A DNA stretch of 14,871 nt, from IMG/VR virus record IMGVR_UViG_2541047124_000022; one strand, written 5' to 3'. The DNA comes from a virus. Its lineage: Duplodnaviria; Heunggongvirae; Uroviricota; Caudoviricetes. Each line of letters opens with the position of its first letter. Position 1 is the first letter of the stretch. The notes beneath the pieces were generated by a model, which did not search any database, was not told the origin of the DNA, and saw only the letters and a program-made list of their open reading frames with translations. This document shows, in pieces, positions 341 to 12,175 of the stretch. A program made the translations under genes and the position numbers.

Positions 341-417
341 TGGCGCGTTGTACTGGAGTCGAACCAGTGACCGATTGCTTAGAAGGCAATTGCTCTGTCC
401 GGCTGAGCTAAAAACGC
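341..417 (-). tRNA. tRNA-Arg, anticodon TCT (reads AGA), CCA encoded
   Basis: Reverse complement folds as a 77-nt cloverleaf: acceptor GCGTTTT/ACAACGC (one U.C mismatch at 6-67), D arm GCTC/GAGC, anticodon stem ATTGC/GCAAT with loop CTTCTAA, T arm ACTGG-TTCGACT-CCAGT, discriminator G, CCA. Confidence 0.85.
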
Positions 418-430
418 AGAATACCGATAA

Positions 431-507
431 TGGACCGCCATCGGGGACCCGAGCCCCGCGCAGCCAGCTTCGAAGGCTGGCGCTCTGTCACGATGAGCTA
501 ATGGCGG
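431..507 (-). tRNA. tRNA-Arg, anticodon TCG (reads CGA), atypical D and T loops, CCA encoded
   Basis: Reverse complement: acceptor CCGCCAT/ATGGCGG (7 perfect pairs), D stem GCTC/GAGC, anticodon stem CCAGC/GCTGG with loop CTTCGAA, T stem CGGGG/CCCCG, discriminator T, CCA. D loop lacks GG and T loop is CTCGGGT rather than TTCRANY, so it may be a phage-type or degenerate tRNA. Confidence 0.65.
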
Positions 508-514
508 TATGTGA

Positions 515-564
515 TGGTGGCCCTTGCTGGATTTGAACCAGCGACCTGGCGATTATGAGTCGCT
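515..564 (-). pseudogene. 5'-truncated tRNA with CAT anticodon (tRNA-Ile2/Met type); only nt 27-76 retained
   Basis: Reverse complement gives anticodon arm AGCGA-CTCATAA-TCGCC (4 of 5 stem pairs; first pair A-C mismatched), variable AGGTC, T arm GCTGG-TTCAAAT-CCAGC, acceptor 3' strand AAGGGCC, discriminator A, CCA. The expected 5' acceptor strand GGCCCTT and a D arm are absent; the sequence at 565-600 is unrelated and AT-rich. Confidence 0.6.
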
Positions 565-712
565 CTCATCATTTAGCTAAAATGGCTGGGGGAGTGATGA
601 TACATCAGTCACATTAAACATGAAAACAAAATGGTTTTAGGTGAAATACAAAAAGAATAGTGATTAAATATCAAATGGATATGCTTTAAATCTAACCACA
701 GTAAGGACGAGT

Positions 713-1657
713 ATGATTTTTCTCAAGAATGGCGAAAGTTTTATTCGCGTGAATGACTGGGCAGAAATTCAGGCGAGAGAGTCTTACTATCCCAAATTAG
801 AGTTAAATGATCAGCAACTCTCTGACGTTTTTGGTTACTACGATGACCTACCAGAGGAAATTCCATGTGGAAAATCAAATTGCCGCAAAGGGCATAAAAA
901 GGGATTTCTGGTAGTTACGAAAGAAGGATTTGAAACGAATATCGGCCATGTATGTGGAACTAATGTTTTTGGTATAGCCTTTGATAATTTAGCAATAGAA
1001 CTTTGCCGAAAAGCAGATTTCCATCGCTTACTTACCGCACTTAAAGAGGCAAAAGATGATATTTTTAGCTATTACAAACTCAAAGCCAAAATCGAATCTG
1101 GGCGTCCATCACTAACTGAGGTTGCTCATAGAATACTTGACATGAAAGACCCTAAAATCATCGGGCGTGCAGCTTATCAAACATTGAAAAAGATGGCTGC
1201 TTCTGGTGATGGGCGTGTTTTCCGCTCAAGATTAAAAAATACAGAAGAGCTAGAACTGGACGAAATTATGTCCCAGAAGCAAACAAGCGACTCAGCTCCA
1301 AAAGTTAACAACAAAAACAAAACCGTAAATGAACTTATTGGGGTAATACAATACCCTGAATGCTTGCTGAATGATTATGACATTGCTCTTCTTTATGAAA
1401 GAGATATAAAAATGGTTCTGGAAAAATTAAACAAATGTACCCCAGATGAATTGACTGAAAGAGAGGTGTTGTCTTTTGGAATAAAGGTTTCAAGATTAAG
1501 AGAACGCTTTAACTTTGTTCAGGAACGCTTAGAAAAATCCAGGGTTTTTGCAACAAGAGAAAACCTTAAACCTTTACGTGCATTACTTAACATTCAGAAA
1601 TCTGTAAGCAATAAAGACAAATTACTATTTAAGAAATTTATGGAAAATTTACCATAA
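713..1657 (+). CDS. Hypothetical protein, 314 aa; moron-like accessory gene of unknown function
   Basis: ATG at 713 with AAGGA SD 5 nt upstream; long uninterrupted ORF; visibly lower G+C than neighbours; opposite orientation to flanking genes; ends 7 nt before a strong hairpin terminator. No family recognised by eye. Confidence 0.75.
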   Translation: MIFLKNGESFIRVNDWAEIQARESYYPKLELNDQQLSDVFGYYDDLPEEIPCGKSNCRKGHKKGFLVVTKEGFETNIGHVCGTNVFGIAFDNLAIELCRKADFHRLLTALKEAKDDIFSYYKLKAKIESGRPSLTEVAHRILDMKDPKIIGRAAYQTLKKMAASGDGRVFRSRLKNTEELELDEIMSQKQTSDSAPKVNNKNKTVNELIGVIQYPECLLNDYDIALLYERDIKMVLEKLNKCTPDELTEREVLSFGIKVSRLRERFNFVQERLEKSRVFATRENLKPLRALLNIQKSVSNKDKLLFKKFMENLP

Positions 1658-1663
1658 TTAAAA

Positions 1664-1683
1664 AACCCGCTATAAAGCGGGTT
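1664..1683. terminator. Bidirectional rho-independent terminator
   Basis: 8-bp stem AACCCGCT/AGCGGGTT with ATAA loop. T-rich on the plus side (terminates 713-1657) and T-rich on the minus side (terminates the short transcript from the promoter at 1725-1754). Confidence 0.7.
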
Positions 1684-1724
1684 CCGTGTTAATTTTTATA
1701 TTGGCGCTAAACCCCATAATTAAA

Positions 1725-1754
1725 ATGATACAAGACAATTTTATGCAAAGTCAA
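1725..1754 (-). promoter_or_regulatory. Sigma70-type promoter just downstream of the zinc-finger gene, followed about 45 nt later by a terminator (pR'/tR'-like unit)
   Basis: Minus strand: -35 TTGACT (plus 1749-1754), 18-nt spacer, -10 TATCAT (plus 1725-1730). AT-rich -10-like repeats (TAATTAT, TATAAA) lie in the initial transcribed region before the hairpin at 1664-1683. Confidence 0.45.
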
Positions 1755-1793: not shown

Positions 1794-2609
1794 TCAGTAA
1801 CTCGTTGCCTTCTCAAATTCTCTAGCCGCATGCCGCTCACCTTGATGCAGGATATCAACCAATTTTTCATAGAATGGTTTCCAATTGCGCGACCATGAAG
1901 ACTGGTGCAGATCGGGAATGTATATTTGAATAGCTCGATGAACATTAGCTGATTTGATAGATACGAATCCCTTTCCACTACAACGCTCGCAGATTTTAAA
2001 CACTGGCACACCACGCTCGCTTGTGGCTTTGCGGTCCAGTACCTCTCCCTTTCCACCACAACGACACCTGGCACTTATCACTCCCTTCCCTTTACATACA
2101 TCGCAAACGACTGGTACAACTTCCGTTACCTCTGTCCATTTTTCCCAGTCTGACGGTCGAACAGCACGGGAGCGACTGGCCCAATATGGTGCTTTACCCC
2201 ATGGGTATGAAACCTTACGAATGACCTGCTTACGGGGTGTTAGTCCGGTACCACTGCAACTATGGCATGTTACGCTGGTGGCCGCCGATCGGGAATACTC
2301 AGCAAAAGCAAACTGAGCCAGTACCAGCATACACCAGCCAAATTCACCACCAGCTGCTTTACGCACATTCTTCGGTGCAATTTCCATCGCGTGACGCGCC
2401 AGCGCCTGGACTGCCATCTGCTCATCAGTCTTGCTGATACCGGCCTTCCCGAAGAAGGCCGCCAGGCCAAACCGCTCACGATTGCTGGTGGTACCAATAG
2501 CCGCCATAACATCGGTGCCTGTAAGACGTTCCGGAGAGGTTCCTTTCACATCGTCGCCGATATACATTCCCTGAGGACTGAAGTATTTTAGCGATGCCTC
2601 AAGCTTCAT
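1794..2609 (-). CDS. Zinc-finger protein with four DnaJ-like CxxCxGxG repeats, 271 aa; possible Q-type late antiterminator by position
   Basis: Motifs CHSCSGTG, CDVCKGKG, CRCGGKG, CERCSGKG. Start overlaps upstream gene stop (TAATG). Last gene of the early-right operon, immediately upstream of the promoter-terminator unit. Confidence 0.8.
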   Translation of the reverse strand: MKLEASLKYFSPQGMYIGDDVKGTSPERLTGTDVMAAIGTTSNRERFGLAAFFGKAGISKTDEQMAVQALARHAMEIAPKNVRKAAGGEFGWCMLVLAQFAFAEYSRSAATSVTCHSCSGTGLTPRKQVIRKVSYPWGKAPYWASRSRAVRPSDWEKWTEVTEVVPVVCDVCKGKGVISARCRCGGKGEVLDRKATSERGVPVFKICERCSGKGFVSIKSANVHRAIQIYIPDLHQSSWSRNWKPFYEKLVDILHQGERHAAREFEKATSY

Positions 2610-3466
2610 TATTCACACTCCCCAACCAGATTGAGAATGACCGCTGCACCGTCGTCTTCCATGCATTCACCCTTACCACTTGCCAGAAACCAGCGGCACA
2701 CCTCCACGGCTTCAGCGCGTGTCACCGGTTTGATAGTTGCCAGCAATTTTTCAAGGTAGCGCTCCCGGTCATATACTGATTCGTGATGCTCAGAGTAACC
2801 AAACTCATCGCCCTGTTCTTTAGTTGCAGTGTGGCGAACACTGTAGAGCCAGTCCCAGTAAACGAACTCGCGAACAACATCAGACAGCGTATAAGGCTCA
2901 GGCAGCACATCGCGATATCCATCAACAAATGCCCGACGCTGTTCATCAATTTCGTTCATGCGGCTGCCGCCAATGCTTCCGGCTTTTTTCTCTGCCGCAG
3001 TCCAGCCCCAGAGATGATCGTTGATAAATTTCTGGGAAGACCTGATGACCCGCTCTGCTTCCACATCTTCGAGCGCTGCTTCATAGCTACCAAACGTAGC
3101 CCTGACTGATGCCGCTTTTTTGATGTTCTCCCGGGCGTTCCTGATAACCTGCGCAGGGTTATCCATGCCGATGATGCCGAACGCAACCTGGAAAGGTTCG
3201 TAACCATTCGCCAGCAGATAACGCGAATAGCGTTCCTGAGCCTCTTTTGGGGAAATTTTAATTTTCACCAGCGCAGCCTCAGCAGCATCCAGATGTGCGG
3301 GTTCGTTCAGACGGATAACCTCCAGCACCCAAAGATAAGCATCAGTCTGCTTATGCCCGGTGATTCTCCGTTGCTCTGGCAGGGGCTTGATGTTTGCGAG
3401 GGCGGAGCTGTACGCTGCCGTCGGGATGGTGAATAGTGCTTTATGTTCGTTGTTATCAGTACGCAT
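2609..3466 (-). CDS. Hypothetical protein, 285 aa, in the replication operon
   Basis: Long ORF translationally coupled at both ends (TAATG overlaps with primase stop and zinc-finger gene start). No recognisable motif. Confidence 0.75.
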   Translation of the reverse strand: MRTDNNEHKALFTIPTAAYSSALANIKPLPEQRRITGHKQTDAYLWVLEVIRLNEPAHLDAAEAALVKIKISPKEAQERYSRYLLANGYEPFQVAFGIIGMDNPAQVIRNARENIKKAASVRATFGSYEAALEDVEAERVIRSSQKFINDHLWGWTAAEKKAGSIGGSRMNEIDEQRRAFVDGYRDVLPEPYTLSDVVREFVYWDWLYSVRHTATKEQGDEFGYSEHHESVYDRERYLEKLLATIKPVTRAEAVEVCRWFLASGKGECMEDDGAAVILNLVGECE

Positions 3467-4434
3467 TACGCAACCGCCTTTTTCTTATGGAAAACCAGCT
3501 CTCGAACCTGATCACCGTTCATGAGCATATTGTTGAAATCATCGTGATCCGGCCAGTACACGCTCACGCGCTGCAGGTCATTCTTTGCCATCAGATTGGC
3601 ATGAGCACATTCGCAAGCCGCAGCCAGCCCGGTGGCGCTGTTCTCGTCACGGTCGGCAAAAATAATCAGGTGCAAAACACCAGTTGGTACGCGGAACTTT
3701 TTCATAAAGCCGCTGTTAATGGTTGCCCAGGTGTTCACGTTATAAATCTGGTGCGCTGACAGCGCTGTTTCGATGCCTTCGGCGATACCCAGAGTGCTGG
3801 CGACAGGAAACATGCGGATAGCTACAGAACGAGCGTGATCCAAATAGTTATCTTCCTGCAGGGATTTGAGGCGCTTTGCACTGCTACCGATATCTGCTTT
3901 TTTATCACCATCAAGCAGAGTCTGGTGCAGATAGCACAACTCCCCTTTATCGTCCGTAGCAAGTGAATAAAGAGACTGGAACACACTCCCGTTGTGTCTC
4001 TGCCTGGCATTGAACCGGATCGCCTCAGCAGGAAGACTGAATATTCCACGAGAATTAAGATACGCTGCGCCGGATGTACCACGCAGTGCCTCCAGTTTTG
4101 AAAACTTGCTCAATACCCGTTTGCGTAAGCTGGTGGCGCTGCTGGTTACCGGGATTTTAACCCGTTGGTAATCATTACCGATCAGGCGGTCTATTTCGGT
4201 ACAAATCTCGTTAAATGGCTTCGCCTGTGTCAGGGTGACAAGTTTCATACCATCGCCACTACCACATACACAGATCCACGTTCCTGCACCGTCGCGGTCG
4301 TCAATTCGGAACTTGCCACGTGCACCGCATACCGGGCATTCACCCTTGAAGTGATTTTTTCCGGTTATCGGCGGCAGACCGAAGTGCTCTAATATTTCAG
4401 GCCAGCGGCCTTTCGCTGCATCTGCTGTTTTCAT
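3466..4434 (-). CDS. DNA primase, zinc-ribbon plus TOPRIM type, 322 aa
   Basis: N-terminal CPVCG...CVCG zinc-binding motif; acidic TOPRIM-like motifs (IAEGIETALS, IFADRDENSATG); start 1 nt after helicase stop. Confidence 0.8.
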   Translation of the reverse strand: MKTADAAKGRWPEILEHFGLPPITGKNHFKGECPVCGARGKFRIDDRDGAGTWICVCGSGDGMKLVTLTQAKPFNEICTEIDRLIGNDYQRVKIPVTSSATSLRKRVLSKFSKLEALRGTSGAAYLNSRGIFSLPAEAIRFNARQRHNGSVFQSLYSLATDDKGELCYLHQTLLDGDKKADIGSSAKRLKSLQEDNYLDHARSVAIRMFPVASTLGIAEGIETALSAHQIYNVNTWATINSGFMKKFRVPTGVLHLIIFADRDENSATGLAAACECAHANLMAKNDLQRVSVYWPDHDDFNNMLMNGDQVRELVFHKKKAVA

Positions 4435-4435
4435 C

Positions 4436-6094
4436 TTACTGACTCAGACTGTTTATATTTTTCTGGAGTTGGTGCTTTGCCTGCATGATGCGCCAGGCCT
4501 CACTGCCTGCCGGTATCTCACGTCGTTCATCACGTTCCTGAGATAAATCAATCGTTGTTTGTGCGTTTTCAGTGACCTTCTGAACCCGCTGGTGGCCTTT
4601 GGCAAACCGGATCAGTTTGTGTCTGATGTAGTTATTTACCTCAGGGGTAATTTCCATCGGAAAGTTACTCAGTCCGTCAGGCCACTCGCCGAACTTTTCC
4701 CGGAAAGTGTGAGCACACCATCCGTCACTGACTGGACGCCCCAGCGAAGCACGCTGGCGCTGATAAAATTTGATCTGACTCCACCAGGACTGTTTCTCTG
4801 CCTTCGTCGACTGATGCTGATTTTTACCCAGCTTATTAAGTTTGCGGCTAGTGTCAGTATCAACGTCTTCACCTCGCAGCGGCTTGTGTCCACATTTCGG
4901 GCAAACATAGACGCCTGCTGGCTTCATGTAGTGGCATTGAGGGCATTCATGTGGCAGTTTTTCGGCCCGTTCCTCAACTGCCCGGCGCGCGCTTTCCTCC
5001 ATGCCGTCAGACTTACCGGGAAGCTCGTCGTACTCGATTGAATCCGGATAACCCAAACGGTGCACGGTGCCGCTGTGATCGAAGATAAGGCAGGACTCTT
5101 TACCCGGTGCGGTGCGAAGCCCACGCCCGAGAGCCTGCAACCAGCGAATTTCGCTTTTTGTTGGCCTGGCGTAGATGATGCAACGAACGTCACTATCGAA
5201 TCCGGCTACCAGAACGCCCACACTAACGATGATTTTCGTTGCACCAGTTTCAAAGCGGTGAATGATGGTCTGGCGCTCATCTACCGGAGTATCTGCGGTC
5301 ATTACCTCAGAGTTAACACCTGCGAGGTTAAACTGGATTGTCAGGTAATTGGCGTGGGCTACGTTGACGCAGAAAGCGATGGTAGGTAGATCCCGACCAT
5401 TCTCCAGCCAGTTCTGTACAATGTCGCCCACCAGCGTAGAGCCGCACATGATTTCAGCCAGCTGTGTTTCGTTGTAATCGCGGCCGTACTCAAGCGAAGA
5501 TGTGGTTTTAACACCTTTCAGATCCGGCTTAGTTGGCGCGTAAAATTCGTATTTACTCAGATCGCCACGCTGGATTAACTCGCCGATGGTGGTCGGTTTA
5601 ATCAGTCGGTCATAGTATTTGCCCAGGAACGGGGAAAACGGAGTACCCGACAGGCCAATCACCTTTACGCCTTTGCCGCGCAGACGTTCGATATCCTTCA
5701 GGATGCGTTTTTTACGCAGGTGCGCTTCGTCGATAATCAGCAGATCGATATTTTCAGGAAAAACACGACGAATAAGCGTATCAGCGCTGGCAATCTGAAT
5801 TTTCCGGTCCGGATCGTAGTTCGGGTGATCCGCCCAGATATAACCGATTTCATCTCCAGGTAAACCATACTGCACGAACCGATTAGCCGTCTGACCAATC
5901 AGGATGGTGTACGGAACACAGAACAGAGCGCGCATACCACGGCTGACAAAACCAGCAACTATGAAGGCTGCCAGACCCGTTTTACCGCTACCTGTTGGCG
6001 AATACACCATGAAGGTGTCGTTTGCCTTCCAGTCACGGCGCAACATGTTTAGCGCTCGTTCCTGTGCAAAATTCGGCGTGATCGTCAGCTCCAT
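4436..6094 (-). CDS. Superfamily-2 DEAH-box helicase, 552 aa; candidate replicative helicase
   Basis: Walker A SPTGSGKT; Walker B LIIDEAH; C-terminal zinc ribbon CPQC...CPKCGH; GGGAG SD 7 nt upstream of ATG. Confidence 0.85.
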   Translation of the reverse strand: MELTITPNFAQERALNMLRRDWKANDTFMVYSPTGSGKTGLAAFIVAGFVSRGMRALFCVPYTILIGQTANRFVQYGLPGDEIGYIWADHPNYDPDRKIQIASADTLIRRVFPENIDLLIIDEAHLRKKRILKDIERLRGKGVKVIGLSGTPFSPFLGKYYDRLIKPTTIGELIQRGDLSKYEFYAPTKPDLKGVKTTSSLEYGRDYNETQLAEIMCGSTLVGDIVQNWLENGRDLPTIAFCVNVAHANYLTIQFNLAGVNSEVMTADTPVDERQTIIHRFETGATKIIVSVGVLVAGFDSDVRCIIYARPTKSEIRWLQALGRGLRTAPGKESCLIFDHSGTVHRLGYPDSIEYDELPGKSDGMEESARRAVEERAEKLPHECPQCHYMKPAGVYVCPKCGHKPLRGEDVDTDTSRKLNKLGKNQHQSTKAEKQSWWSQIKFYQRQRASLGRPVSDGWCAHTFREKFGEWPDGLSNFPMEITPEVNNYIRHKLIRFAKGHQRVQKVTENAQTTIDLSQERDERREIPAGSEAWRIMQAKHQLQKNINSLSQ

Positions 6095-7579: not shown

Positions 7580-8035
7580 ATGGAAATCAAAGATATTCGC
7601 TTAAAAAATCTACAGACGGTAATCCAACGCAGCGGCTTAACCCAGACAGATCTGGCGTTAAAATGTGAGATATCACCCTCACTTATAAGCCAAATAATGA
7701 CTAAGCGCAGGAATATGGGAACTGCTCTCGCTAGAAAACTCGAGGGGCGACTGAGCCTATCAGAAGGATGGTTTGACATCCCCCACTCATTGCTGGATTC
7801 CCCATGGCATCTAGCTAAAATGAGGGAAAAGACTGGTGAGACCACTATTGATGAACAGCAACTAACTAAAAGAGAGACTCGACTTATTGAGTTATTCAGA
7901 CAAATGCCTGAAAGCGAAAAAGACAGGATAATCAGTGAGTTATCTGAAAAGAAACGTAATTTTGACAAACTACTTGATGAGCTAATGGCTGTTAAAGCAT
8001 CAAGAATGCCGATCGACAAAGACGAAAATGAATAA
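7580..8035 (+). CDS. CI-like repressor: N-terminal XRE-type HTH, C-terminal charged helical region, no S24 peptidase domain, 151 aa
   Basis: ATG at 7580 (tracked ORF begins at upstream TTG 7493). HTH segment LTQTDLALKCEISPSLISQIMTKRRNMGTALARKLEGRL; flanked on both sides by the same operator motif. Confidence 0.65.
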   Translation: MEIKDIRLKNLQTVIQRSGLTQTDLALKCEISPSLISQIMTKRRNMGTALARKLEGRLSLSEGWFDIPHSLLDSPWHLAKMREKTGETTIDEQQLTKRETRLIELFRQMPESEKDRIISELSEKKRNFDKLLDELMAVKASRMPIDKDENE

Positions 8036-9522: not shown

Positions 9523-9730
9523 TTTATCCTCTGTATCTGTTGTGCACGAAAAAGTGCAGATCGTTATGATAATTGAAAATGGCCAAGTCACAGGTGTCTG
9601 CAAAGTCCGCGATGGCGAGCTGATTGCCAGCATGGATACATTCATACGGCTGGCAGAAAGAGCGGGGTATCAGATAACAGCACCTGCTCAGGAGGAAACC
9701 GGTGGCATTAACAGCAACACGCATTCCTGA
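9515..9730 (+). CDS. Hypothetical protein, 71 aa
   Basis: ATG with GGAGGA SD 7 nt upstream. Confidence 0.55.
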   Translation: MANLSSVSVVHEKVQIVMIIENGQVTGVCKVRDGELIASMDTFIRLAERAGYQITAPAQEETGGINSNTHS

Positions 9731-9920
9731 GCGGATCCACCGGCAGGCATTGCAGGTCCTGTTGTTGTACCGATGCCGACGGATATTTCCGCATCGGATA
9801 CAGCGCACCGGATATCTCAGTCTGAAGATTAACCGTCGCTGGCGGCTGTTATCGAAAGACGACGGCCGGAACTGGGAAGTAATGAGTCATGAACGTTATT
9901 CGGGAGAAATAAAGAAATGA
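9702..9920 (+). CDS. Arg-rich basic protein, 72 aa, GTG start
   Basis: GTG at 9702 with GGAGGA SD 5 nt upstream; stop overlaps next ATG (ATGA at 9917-9920); lies in a locally GC-rich segment. Confidence 0.4.
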   Translation: MALTATRIPERIHRQALQVLLLYRCRRIFPHRIQRTGYLSLKINRRWRLLSKDDGRNWEVMSHERYSGEIKK

Positions 9921-10369: not shown

Positions 10370-10558
10370 ATGAACATTTATTTCAGAATAGTTATATCAC
10401 TGGCAATTATCACATGTATTTACGGATTAATCGTTCCGGCCCTCATATCAATGAAGGATACGGTAGCAGTGATTTCTGGCTTTGCTCTGGCGTGTCTGAC
10501 CCCGCCCTGCATTTATGCCATTTATAAGGGTCTTTCTTTTTCTAAGGATAAAAGATGA
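10370..10558 (+). CDS. Small membrane protein with two predicted TM helices, 62 aa
   Basis: Strong SD (CAGGAGGACC-ATG); hydrophobic stretches IVISLAIITCIYGLIVPALI and VAVISGFALACLTPPCIYAIY; ATGA-coupled to the downstream SPFH gene. Confidence 0.7.
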   Translation: MNIYFRIVISLAIITCIYGLIVPALISMKDTVAVISGFALACLTPPCIYAIYKGLSFSKDKR

Positions 10559-11382
10559 AAAAATTACTTTTTGCTTTAGCCCTTGTTCTGCCGACCATTG
10601 GCCTTGTCGGTTGCGATCGCGTTGAGCCTGGTAATGTGGGCATCAAAGTAAACAAACTGGGCGACGATAAAGGCGTCGGTGAAGTGGTCGGTGTTGGGCG
10701 CTACTGGACTGGATGGAACACTGAGGTTTACATCTTCCCGACCTTTAAGCAGATGAAGACCTACGATGATCCATTCAGTTTCCAGATGAGTGACGGTACA
10801 ACCATCGGCTATCACATCGGCGTGGCCTACAAAGTTGATCCATCCAAAGTTACCACGGTGTTTCAAACCTACCGCAAAGGCGTGGACGACATTACCGACA
10901 CCGACCTGCGCCAGAAGATAGCCGACGCACTCAACCGACTGGCCAGCAAAATGACCACCGACAAATTTATCGACGGCGGCAAGTCTGAGCTGCTGGATGC
11001 AGCTCTTAAAGACATTCAGGAAGAAATGACGCCCATCGGTATTCAGGTAATGAGCCTCTCATATGTGGGTAAGCCGGAGTACCCGCCTACTGTTATCGAC
11101 AGCATTAATGCCAAAGTCACGGCGAACCAGAAAACCCTGCAACGCGAGCAGGAAGTAAAACAGCGCGAAGCGGAAGCCAACATGTTGCGCGCGGAAGCTG
11201 CCGGACAGGCAGATGCGATTCGCACAAAAGCCCAGGCCGAAGCCGACGCTATTCGTTTACGCGGTGAAGCTCTGCGTCAGAACCCCGGTGTTATGGAGCT
11301 GGAAGCCATCAACAAGTGGAACGGTACACTGCCGCAATACATGACCAGCGGTGCCAACACACCATTTATTCAGGTTAAGTAA
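10555..11382 (+). CDS. SPFH/band-7 (prohibitin/HflC-like) lipoprotein, 275 aa
   Basis: Signal peptide with lipobox LVGC (Cys20); SPFH-like core; C-terminal Ala/Glu/Arg/Gln-rich coiled-coil region (QREQEVKQREAEANMLRAEAAGQADAIRTKAQAEADAIRLRGEA). Confidence 0.75.
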   Translation: MKKLLFALALVLPTIGLVGCDRVEPGNVGIKVNKLGDDKGVGEVVGVGRYWTGWNTEVYIFPTFKQMKTYDDPFSFQMSDGTTIGYHIGVAYKVDPSKVTTVFQTYRKGVDDITDTDLRQKIADALNRLASKMTTDKFIDGGKSELLDAALKDIQEEMTPIGIQVMSLSYVGKPEYPPTVIDSINAKVTANQKTLQREQEVKQREAEANMLRAEAAGQADAIRTKAQAEADAIRLRGEALRQNPGVMELEAINKWNGTLPQYMTSGANTPFIQVK

Positions 11383-11425: not shown

Positions 11426-12175
11426 ATGAATATTGTAACCATCAACAACAAACAGTTTCCGGTAATCGAATATCGCGGTCAGCGTGTTGTGACATTTGCA
11501 ATGATTGATGACGTCCACCAGCGCCCGGAAGGTACCGCCCGTGCTGCGTTTAACCGCAACCGTTCTCACTTTATCGAAGGGGTGGATTTTCTTGAAATGA
11601 CTGCGGACGTAATACGTACGGAGTCACTTTCTGATGCCTTTGCCGCGCGAACTGCCAAAGGGATCATTCTTTTCGAGTCTGGTTACCTGATGTTGACGAA
11701 GCCTTTTAACGATACTCTTGCATGGCAGGTTCAGCGCGAACTGGTTAACAGCTATTTCCGAACTCACGCGCCGCTGACGGAAATGGAGATGATCGCTGCA
11801 ATGGCCGCCGATGCCGTTCGTCAGCAGAAGCGCCTGAGTCATGTTGAAGAGAAGATCGAAACGGTCACCAAAGCTGTGGAGAACATCAAACGCGGCACAA
11901 TGCGCACCGGATATGTCGGTTACCGCCAGGTGGTAGCCAAAAGCGGAATGAGTGACGCCAAGTGTCGGAATCTGGTCAACGCCTACCACATCCCTACCGA
12001 CACGCACGAATTTATGACTCCGGACGGTCTGTTGTCTCGCAGGGCTATCGTCGAGCTTGAGACATTTATGGCGGCATTCCACCAAATGATGTCAGAGGCT
12101 GAACCACGCGGCACACGCTGGTATCACCCGAATATGGGGCTTTTCCAGGTAATCGGATGGGAGGATAAAGCATGA
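11426..12175 (+). CDS. Rha/ORF6N-family phage regulatory protein (antirepressor-like), 250 aa
   Basis: ATG at 11426 with GGAGA SD 5 nt upstream (tracked ORF starts earlier in the same frame); N-terminal segment GQRVVTFAMIDDVHQRPEGTARAAFNRNRSHFIEGVDF matches the Rha/ORF6N pattern from memory. Confidence 0.55.
   Translation: MNIVTINNKQFPVIEYRGQRVVTFAMIDDVHQRPEGTARAAFNRNRSHFIEGVDFLEMTADVIRTESLSDAFAARTAKGIILFESGYLMLTKPFNDTLAWQVQRELVNSYFRTHAPLTEMEMIAAMAADAVRQQKRLSHVEEKIETVTKAVENIKRGTMRTGYVGYRQVVAKSGMSDAKCRNLVNAYHIPTDTHEFMTPDGLLSRRAIVELETFMAAFHQMMSEAEPRGTRWYHPNMGLFQVIGWEDKA

Follow-up and report, generated by a model that had tools for sequence, protein, structure and literature searches.

A gene of 314 codons lies between the antiterminator gene Q and a tRNA array in a 14,871-nucleotide stretch of viral DNA (Caudoviricetes; IMG/VR record IMGVR_UViG_2541047124_000022), hereafter the window, which was found to be a portion of a lambdoid prophage whose late genes read on the minus strand. 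The open reading frame (ORF) at positions 713-1657 is almost certainly a real accessory gene. It forms a transcription unit of its own in temperate phages, rich in AT, kept by selection and yet dispensable, and its product is predicted to join a CCHC zinc beta domain to a fast-evolving helical body in a novel fold. Judged by its promoter and its orientation, the ORF is probably expressed in the lysogen and silenced by late transcription. The complete reading that we favour, in which the product is made in the lysogen as an exclusion or defence protein and shut off by convergent late transcription, is more tentative and falls somewhat short of being probable.

Several properties of the gene had been claimed in an earlier sequence-only reading of the window and were borne out. 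The 314-aa ORF is present with an ATG start, and its own Shine-Dalgarno sequence (AAGGA) was located. Its AT-richness is likewise real, as the ORF has a GC content of 36.4% (30.6% at third codon positions) versus 53% in the N-terminal part of Q and 51.5% in the replication genes. Comparison of E. coli alleles gave a ratio of nonsynonymous to synonymous substitution rates (dN/dS) of 0.05-0.09, which amounts to strong purifying selection. Copies of the ORF that are 100% identical are carried by E. coli chromosomes, in which the ORF-bearing 1.3 kb recurs at 99-100% identity. Beyond the tRNAs, these chromosomal copies continue with a DUF6645 gene, holin, lysozyme and terminase, and an excisionase and integrase are found at the opposite end of the prophages. 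The only phage record with an identical copy is vB_EcoS-611R1. The encoded protein (36 kDa, isoelectric point (pI) 8.8) is soluble, has neither a transmembrane segment nor a signal peptide, and is predicted to be cytoplasmic.

The ORF also appears to be served by a promoter of its own. An extended -10 element (TG-n-TTAAAT, at about 661-669) had been proposed upstream of the gene, and both its conservation and its rarity in the window uphold it. The pattern TGAAA-N14-TGn-TTAAAT occurs a single time in the window, where 0.01 occurrences are expected by chance, and a single copy, 43 nt ahead of the ATG, was found in each of 31 orthologous loci whose proteins are 59-100% identical. Among these loci the sequence of the spacer varies while the flanking elements persist. 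As judged from this pattern of conservation, the arrangement is the phylogenetic footprint of a sigma-70 promoter with an extended -10. A consensus promoter scan misses it because the scan demands an A at the second -10 position. A LexA box (CTGT-N8-ACAG) was absent from the ORF upstream region, which was inspected by reading. A palindromic operator (ATATC-N5-GATAT at 668-682) was considered and rejected, as the repeat is not conserved.

The protein belongs to PHROG 7003, a family listed as of unknown function (E 2.4e-118, with residues 1-313 aligned to profile positions 1-308 of 309). When 1.84 billion representatives were scanned exhaustively with HMMER, 551 clusters were returned at E<=0.001 (the clusters being 50% identity representatives), most of them full-length at about 300 aa. 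A word-indexed search detected proteins of 59-69% identity in Kluyvera, Ewingella and metagenomes, and the family occurs in temperate phages of Enterobacteriaceae and Pseudomonas. A scan of genome contigs with an alignment of close homologues found no relative. The sequence-only reading had recognised no family for the protein. This stands with respect to Pfam, NCBIfam and PADLOC, in which no meaningful match was obtained for the protein, 66 relatives or the isolated N-terminal domain, and with respect to the PDB, in which sequence profiles built from the whole family or from the zinc domain gave nothing below E 0.03. It does not stand with respect to PHROG 7003 itself or to an entry in a published table of defence predictions, described below. 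The profile hidden Markov model (HMM) and structure searches that had been advised were run and gave no match to a housekeeping or phage structural family. A match to the RIG-I C-terminal domain (E 0.02), obtained with one of 28 members, was taken as noise.

Conservation within the family is concentrated in a small N-terminal domain. C52, C57, H61 and C81 are invariant in an alignment of 66 sequences and in a second alignment, and these CCHC ligands form a putative zinc-binding site. Y43, G64, G78, G82 and F86 of the same domain are also invariant; apart from N284, all invariant positions of the protein fall within it. Mean pairwise identity is 50% in the zinc domain and 19-27% elsewhere. The AlphaFold (AF2) model has a predicted local distance difference test score (pLDDT) of 95.7 and a predicted template modelling score (pTM) of 0.85, and no informative structural match for it was found in the PDB or BFVD. 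The modelled domain is similar to a treble clef or His-Me finger in its Cx4C knuckle, its beta-hairpin (64-69, 74-77) and a helix that has C81 in its first turn, and the spacing of 15 residues from H61 to N76 is reminiscent, though only that, of an H-N-H motif. An HNH or His-Me finger nuclease built on H61, N76 and H79 was rejected: H61 precedes beta-1 and is invariant along with the three cysteines, as would suit a zinc ligand, positions 79 and 84 of the helix are variable, and there is no Pfam HNH match. When fusions of the zinc domain to other domains were sought, nothing but fragments (60-176 aa) came back, none with a Pfam domain.

Family members were found to recur in two locations, the Q-to-lysis interval and the cI immunity region, both in temperate phages. 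Those in the Q interval are always antisense to late transcription, and in the loci with enough flanking sequence a convergent Q gene lies 127-152 bp past the ORF, measured from stop to stop. The upstream side of the ORF differs from locus to locus and holds tRNAs, DUF6645, holin or stx2e. Orthologues of about 59% identity stand beside three unrelated Q families, namely PF03589 in most cases, PF06323 in Ewingella and PF06530 in locus L034, where tRNAs lie between Q and the ORF. Moreover, Stx2e and Stx2f prophages have a family member between Q with its late promoter PR' and stxA/stxB (L002 6512-10107; L045 1056-4644), which agrees with the earlier assignment of the gene to the slot of the Shiga toxin genes. 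Q-dependent transcription towards the toxin genes of these prophages therefore has a convergent unit of about 1 kb in its way. In the immunity region, one member follows cI in the same direction at a distance of 20 bp. A Klebsiella phage and several genome- or read-assembled prophages carry theirs in the space that separates the early-left operon from cI, on the opposite strand, and in Pseudomonas F116-like phages the member is divergent from an early operon. Around one copy of 63% identity, no obvious phage genes were seen. No conserved partner gene was found: immunity-region loci do have small convergent ORFs that run into the 3' end of the gene, but these share no homology from one lineage to another, and a two-gene system was rejected.

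The gene was found to be facultative even in closely similar prophages. Only 22 of 5,426 complete E. coli genomes carry the window's ORF. The window's Q allele is present in 40 complete E. coli genomes, which comprise these 22, 15 with a divergent allele and three others. The divergent allele encodes 306 aa of 25% identity in the same slot and orientation; among its carriers are Stx2f prophages, in which it separates Q from stxA2f. In at least one of the three other genomes a 930-bp deletion has reduced the gene to its last 27 codons (L049 ~3093-3193). In phi467 a frameshift splits the Stx2f-type allele into two ORFs (L011 5001-5875), and a W16* nonsense codon was found in another family member (L021 8001-8942). 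With these three independent inactivations, the gene is readily lost. HMM searches found no family member in Fels-1 and SaltyDalty, whose Q is 81-83% identical, or in Klebsiella phages with a Q of 67-68% identity, including ST405-OXA48phi1.3; the Q of all these is of the window's type. The moron character proposed for the gene holds in its deviant GC, its conserved promoter and its facultative presence, as illustrated by Fels-1, SaltyDalty and the L049 deletion. In Fels-1 the slot after Q is occupied by an unrelated antisense ORF of 130 aa, STM0904, with no Pfam family (L051 3971-4363), and the Q-adjacent slot seems to collect antisense cargo in general.

Further analysis showed the Q gene to be mosaic. 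Of the 40 E. coli genomes with this Q, 18 share only 1966-2620 with the window. The two alleles have the replication genes and the first ~215 Q codons in common and diverge from a breakpoint at ~1966, and the last ~56 Q codons have a GC content of 42%. By this distribution of homology, the Q C-terminus (~56 codons), PR' with its terminator tR', and the ORF form a single recombination module, and exchange would seem to move the C-terminus of Q together with the promoter/qut region that belongs to it.

The late promoter candidate of this module (TTGACT-18-TATCAT) matches the consensus at 10 of 12 positions. It lies 40 nt downstream of the Q stop codon, is conserved between the two Q alleles, and is followed ~35 nt beyond by a hairpin. 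The sequence TATGGGG near its predicted start is, we presume, similar to the sigma-dependent pause element of lambda PR'. By position and by analogy with lambdoid phages in general, the promoter and hairpin would be PR' and tR'. The unit from PR' to the hairpin (1656-1754, minus strand) would yield a transcript of ~60 nt, analogous to lambda 6S RNA. The hairpin begins 5 nt past the ORF stop codon and is common to both convergent transcription units; an equivalent hairpin is present in the Stx2f-type allele. It scores as an intrinsic terminator on the minus strand only, since the plus-strand sequence after it is UUCCGUGUU, as opposed to U6 on the minus strand. The strong private terminator once ascribed to the ORF, a feature expected of a moron, is thus reassigned to the late operon, of which it would be tR'; for the ORF the hairpin is at best a weak bidirectional stop. 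The orientation of the ORF had been described correctly, on the plus strand against Q and the tRNAs on the minus strand.

On its other side the ORF adjoins a tRNA with a CAT anticodon, and here the sequence-only reading had to be revised. It held that this tRNA loses its 5' half at the boundary of an insert. Instead, the full Rfam tRNA model aligns to 518-586 at 36 bits (gathering score 29), with mispairs in the acceptor, D and anticodon stems. The first 25 nt differ from intact ileZ by 6 substitutions, 5 of which are GC to AT. ARAGORN makes no call at this site because the substitutions break the acceptor and D stems, and it does call the homologues in loci L003 and L023. A comparison of the junction in relatives had been advised, with an intact tRNA beside the same gene named as the outcome that would speak against an insertion. 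This was found in 10 related loci, where the orthologous ORF is preceded at 125 bp (126 bp in the window) by an intact CAT-tRNA of 77 nt. Because relatives keep an intact tRNA at the same distance, the adjacency is ancestral and leaves no insertion scar. Homology to the ileZ-argN-argO array of more than 2,900 genomes fades at ~581, and a mosaic boundary is therefore placed inside the CAT-tRNA. The window's copy was decayed, or patched by recombination, rather than truncated.

A candidate promoter for the tRNA array, divergent from the ORF promoter, lies between the two, and an equivalent (TTGCAA-17-TATCTT) is found upstream of the intact tRNA in L023 (~7880-7930). Given this candidate, the tRNAs may not be solely dependent on read-through from PR'. 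Two further observations concern the tRNAs themselves. The 'intact' ileZ of Stx-type arrays (L003 4016-4087) is 72 nt long with the anticodon at position 30 by ARAGORN, and both it and the window copy are without 4 nt of the anticodon stem relative to the Rfam model. In relatives, ARAGORN also reported a tRNA of undetermined identity with a two-base 'anticodon' (ag) between the CAT-tRNA and tRNA-Thr.

These features lead to the favoured reading of the ORF as a prophage immunity gene. Its sigma-70 promoter would need no phage factor, and because of this the ORF is expected to be on in the lysogen; the member placed co-directionally behind cI fits such expression. After induction, RNA polymerase modified by Q would pass tR' and cross the whole gene antisense on its way to the tRNAs and late genes. 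Induction would then silence the ORF by collision or antisense RNA and confine the protein to the lysogenic and early states, as the anatomy and the invariable antisense orientation suggest. In the lysogen, the protein may provide superinfection exclusion or an abortive-infection type of defence, which is the weakest step of the chain. It is proposed on the basis of the expression logic, patchy distribution, recurrent loss, fast-evolving body and missing catalytic signature. If so, it would most likely work by binding, with the variable helical part engaging a component of the incoming phage or a host target; enzymatic attack is less likely because no catalytic motif is conserved beyond the zinc ligands.

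Support for defence also comes from the literature. In DefensePredictor (DeWeirdt, Mahoney and Laub, Science 2026, PMC13092281), Table S10 lists WP_096111884.1 with the cluster_id WP_000576620.1. The former is the allele of Stx2e prophages and the latter is exactly the window's protein. The entry is labelled 'Predicted novel defense gene', with a mean log-odds of 4.67 (standard deviation 0.80, range 3.58-5.63) under a strict threshold of 4, and has no HHblits or Foldseek link to known defence (PMC13092281). In that study 42 of 94 candidates were validated overall, and 10 of 31 in the score band 2.67-6.67 (PMC13092281). The ORF is not among the 42 validated DS systems (PMC13092281), and no mention of WP_000576620, phrog_7003 or vB_EcoS-611R1 was found in the literature. 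The entry is a prediction and no demonstration, and it serves as an independent prior for defence of roughly one third.

A number of points count against this favoured reading. As a defence gene the ORF is a predicted candidate, and the log-odds of 4.67 lies just above the cut-off of 4. Of 16 cloned units that scored 4-6, 6 gave protection from one or more of the 24 phages used (PMC13092281). The ORF is not one of the 118 transcription units that were cloned, and none of the sequences in the tables of the study contains the family motif ETN[ILV]G. In PADLOC-DB v2.0.0, 0 families matched the ORF protein at E<=1, and the 66 relatives gave only three single, weak and mutually inconsistent PADLOC matches. 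The sampled members, a small set, are all in temperate phages or prophages and none in a chromosomal defence island. With a pI of 5.3 the N-terminal zinc domain is acidic, and a role as nucleic-acid sensor is not obvious. Lastly, convergent silencing is deduced from the geometry of the locus. A broader form of the favoured reading would make PHROG 7003 a new single-protein immunity family with a novel CCHC-zinc/helical fold, no enzymatic effector and antisense-gated expression. The gating would act behind PR'/Q here and possibly PL at the immunity region, so that a prophage shuts off its own immunity protein by read-through. Taken jointly, these propositions are doubtful.

An unlikely alternative, though the best placed of the rivals, is that the gene regulates the lysis-lysogeny or late switch of the phage itself. 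The protein, or convergent transcription into tR'/PR'/Q, would damp leaky late transcription, an effect that would extend to stx2e/stx2f downstream and resemble the lambda antisense paQ or the modulatory role reported for RexA. The close spacing of the ORF and Q stop codons in every locus examined (127-152 bp) would suit such a role, as would the joint recombination of the Q C-terminus, PR'/tR' and ORF. A family member is present in 37 of the 40 E. coli genomes with this Q, with a remnant in at least one of the other three, and the remaining family locations adjoin cI. The plus strand also lacks a proper U-tract, so ORF transcripts may run on into PR' and Q. However, a Q-specific protein partner is unlikely and an anti-Q protein of that kind was disfavoured, since equally similar orthologues (~59% identical) accompany three unrelated Q families. 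Moreover, phages with an 81-83% identical Q manage without the gene, and it has been repeatedly inactivated in otherwise similar prophages. If the effect were pure transcription interference, a 314-aa protein under a dN/dS of ~0.06 would be needless.

Less probable still is a role in counter-defence or early takeover, in which the promoter fires on DNA entry and the protein neutralises host immunity or seizes a host process. The constitutive appearance of the promoter, with no phage factor required, would allow this, and a fast-evolving body around a small conserved core is also what arms-race inhibitors show. The gene is furthermore found only in accessory slots of temperate phages. Its co-directional placement just after cI in one lineage nevertheless points to expression in the prophage state, and BFVD holds no similar viral protein of known function. 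DefensePredictor scores the gene as defence-like, although the model was not trained to separate defence from anti-defence.

The literal analogy with the stx slot, by which the gene would be a lysogenic-conversion factor for host physiology or virulence, is improbable. It draws on the shared position, on the frequency of the gene in Shiga toxin-producing E. coli backgrounds including Stx2e/Stx2f prophages, and on a low GC typical of morons. The protein, however, is predicted to be cytoplasmic with no signal peptide or transmembrane segment. The family extends to temperate phages of Kluyvera, Ewingella, Serratia-type hosts, Klebsiella and Pseudomonas and to commensal mouse E. coli with no pathotype pattern, and a gene antisense to the late transcript would not be co-released with toxin on induction. 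Finally, a non-functional or decaying passenger ORF, to which the W16*, frameshifted and deleted alleles might point, has almost no probability and is excluded by the selection and conservation data (dN/dS 0.05-0.09, invariant zinc ligands, a conserved promoter, 551 clusters with a constant ~300-aa architecture and a confidently predicted fold).

The favoured reading, that of an exclusion or defence gene, can be set beside known systems. Prophage exclusion genes include lambda rexA/rexB, sieB, BstA, Old and Tin. The ORF is like these in being accessory, dispensable and patchy and in being placed where prophage-state expression is expected, and one family member follows cI immediately and co-directionally, in the manner of rexAB in lambda. 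Unlike rexAB, the ORF stands alone and lacks a membrane partner, most of its copies are antisense inside a lytic operon and are not co-transcribed with cI, and the protein has no sequence or structure likeness to PDB entries. Among the morons of lambdoid phages, stx1/stx2 are found downstream of Q and the ileZ-argN-argO tRNAs, and bor and lom elsewhere. The ORF resembles these morons in its Q-to-lysis slot, a deviant GC, a promoter of its own and facultative presence. It differs in that stx is co-oriented with PR'/Q and largely driven by it, whereas transcription from PR' runs head-on into the ORF and would silence it; the adjacency to the tRNA is ancestral as well.

The remaining features of the window are collected with those of the ORF in the table. 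The 285-aa protein between primase and Q is conserved with the replication module, and some records annotate it as 'helix-turn-helix domain containing'. The RefSeq annotation of an identical prophage places ORFs for a ParE-family toxin-like protein, an SPFH-domain protein and an ORF6N-domain protein in the early-left arm on the plus strand, and these are possible further accessory or defence cargo.

Table. Positions of the ORF, its control elements and neighbouring features (in the window unless other loci are named)
Feature	Position	Strand	Basis or remark
Coding sequence, 314 aa, ATG start	713-1657	+	WP_000576620.1; PHROG 7003 member
Conserved beta-rich zinc domain, codons 36-90	818-982	+	66-sequence alignment; secondary structure from model
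Shine-Dalgarno sequence AAGGA	703-707	+	5 nt ahead of ATG, in conserved 5' untranslated region
ORF promoter: -35-like GTGAAA 641-646, 17-nt spacer ending in TG 661-662, -10 TTAAAT 664-669	641-669	+	Conservation
Candidate late promoter PR', TTGACT-18-TATCAT	1725-1754	-	Promoter scan
Hairpin 1662-1685 followed by U6 on minus strand; putative tR' of late operon	1656-1685	-	Terminator call, folds
Q antiterminator gene, PF03589	1794-2609	-	Pfam E 9.6e-52
Candidate tRNA-array promoter, TTTTCA-18-TATCAT, then GC-rich discriminator	597-626	-	Promoter scan, inferred
Decayed CAT-anticodon tRNA, ileZ-like, probable pseudogene	518-586	-	Rfam tRNA 36 bits; no ARAGORN call
tRNA-Arg(TCG)	431-507	-	ARAGORN, Rfam; argN/argO-type array, context outside module
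tRNA-Arg(TCT)	341-417	-	ARAGORN, Rfam; argN/argO-type array, context outside module
285-aa protein, no Pfam family	2609-3466	-	Between primase and Q
Toprim/zinc-ribbon primase	3466-4434	-	
DEAD-box helicase	4436-6094	-	
ParE-family toxin-like ORF, early-left arm	9702-9920	+	RefSeq annotation
SPFH-domain ORF, early-left arm	10555-11382	+	RefSeq annotation
ORF6N-domain ORF, early-left arm	11426-12175	+	RefSeq annotation
Two-base-anticodon tRNA	7723-7796		Loci L023, L024, L026, L029, L031, L032, L035-L037

The gene was already known as a listed, unvalidated candidate in a published prediction table. New here are the size and architecture of the family, the confident model with no structural relative, the CCHC core and the conserved promoter. 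To these are added the module of Q C-terminus, PR' and ORF, the consistent antisense placement behind lytic promoters, and the members between Q and stx2e/stx2f. The family, of ~550 clusters, is unannotated, and a small soluble protein with a confident model is an easy experimental target. If the defence or exclusion reading is true, this would be a new family in which no effector domain can be recognised and whose fold has no counterpart in the PDB; its sensor and its mode of action would both have to be worked out. In Stx2e and Stx2f prophages, the promoter of the ORF family could influence the basal toxin level, toxin read-through and phage inducibility. More generally, antisense placement behind PR' or beside cI suggests a simple general way to confine an immunity gene to lysogeny.

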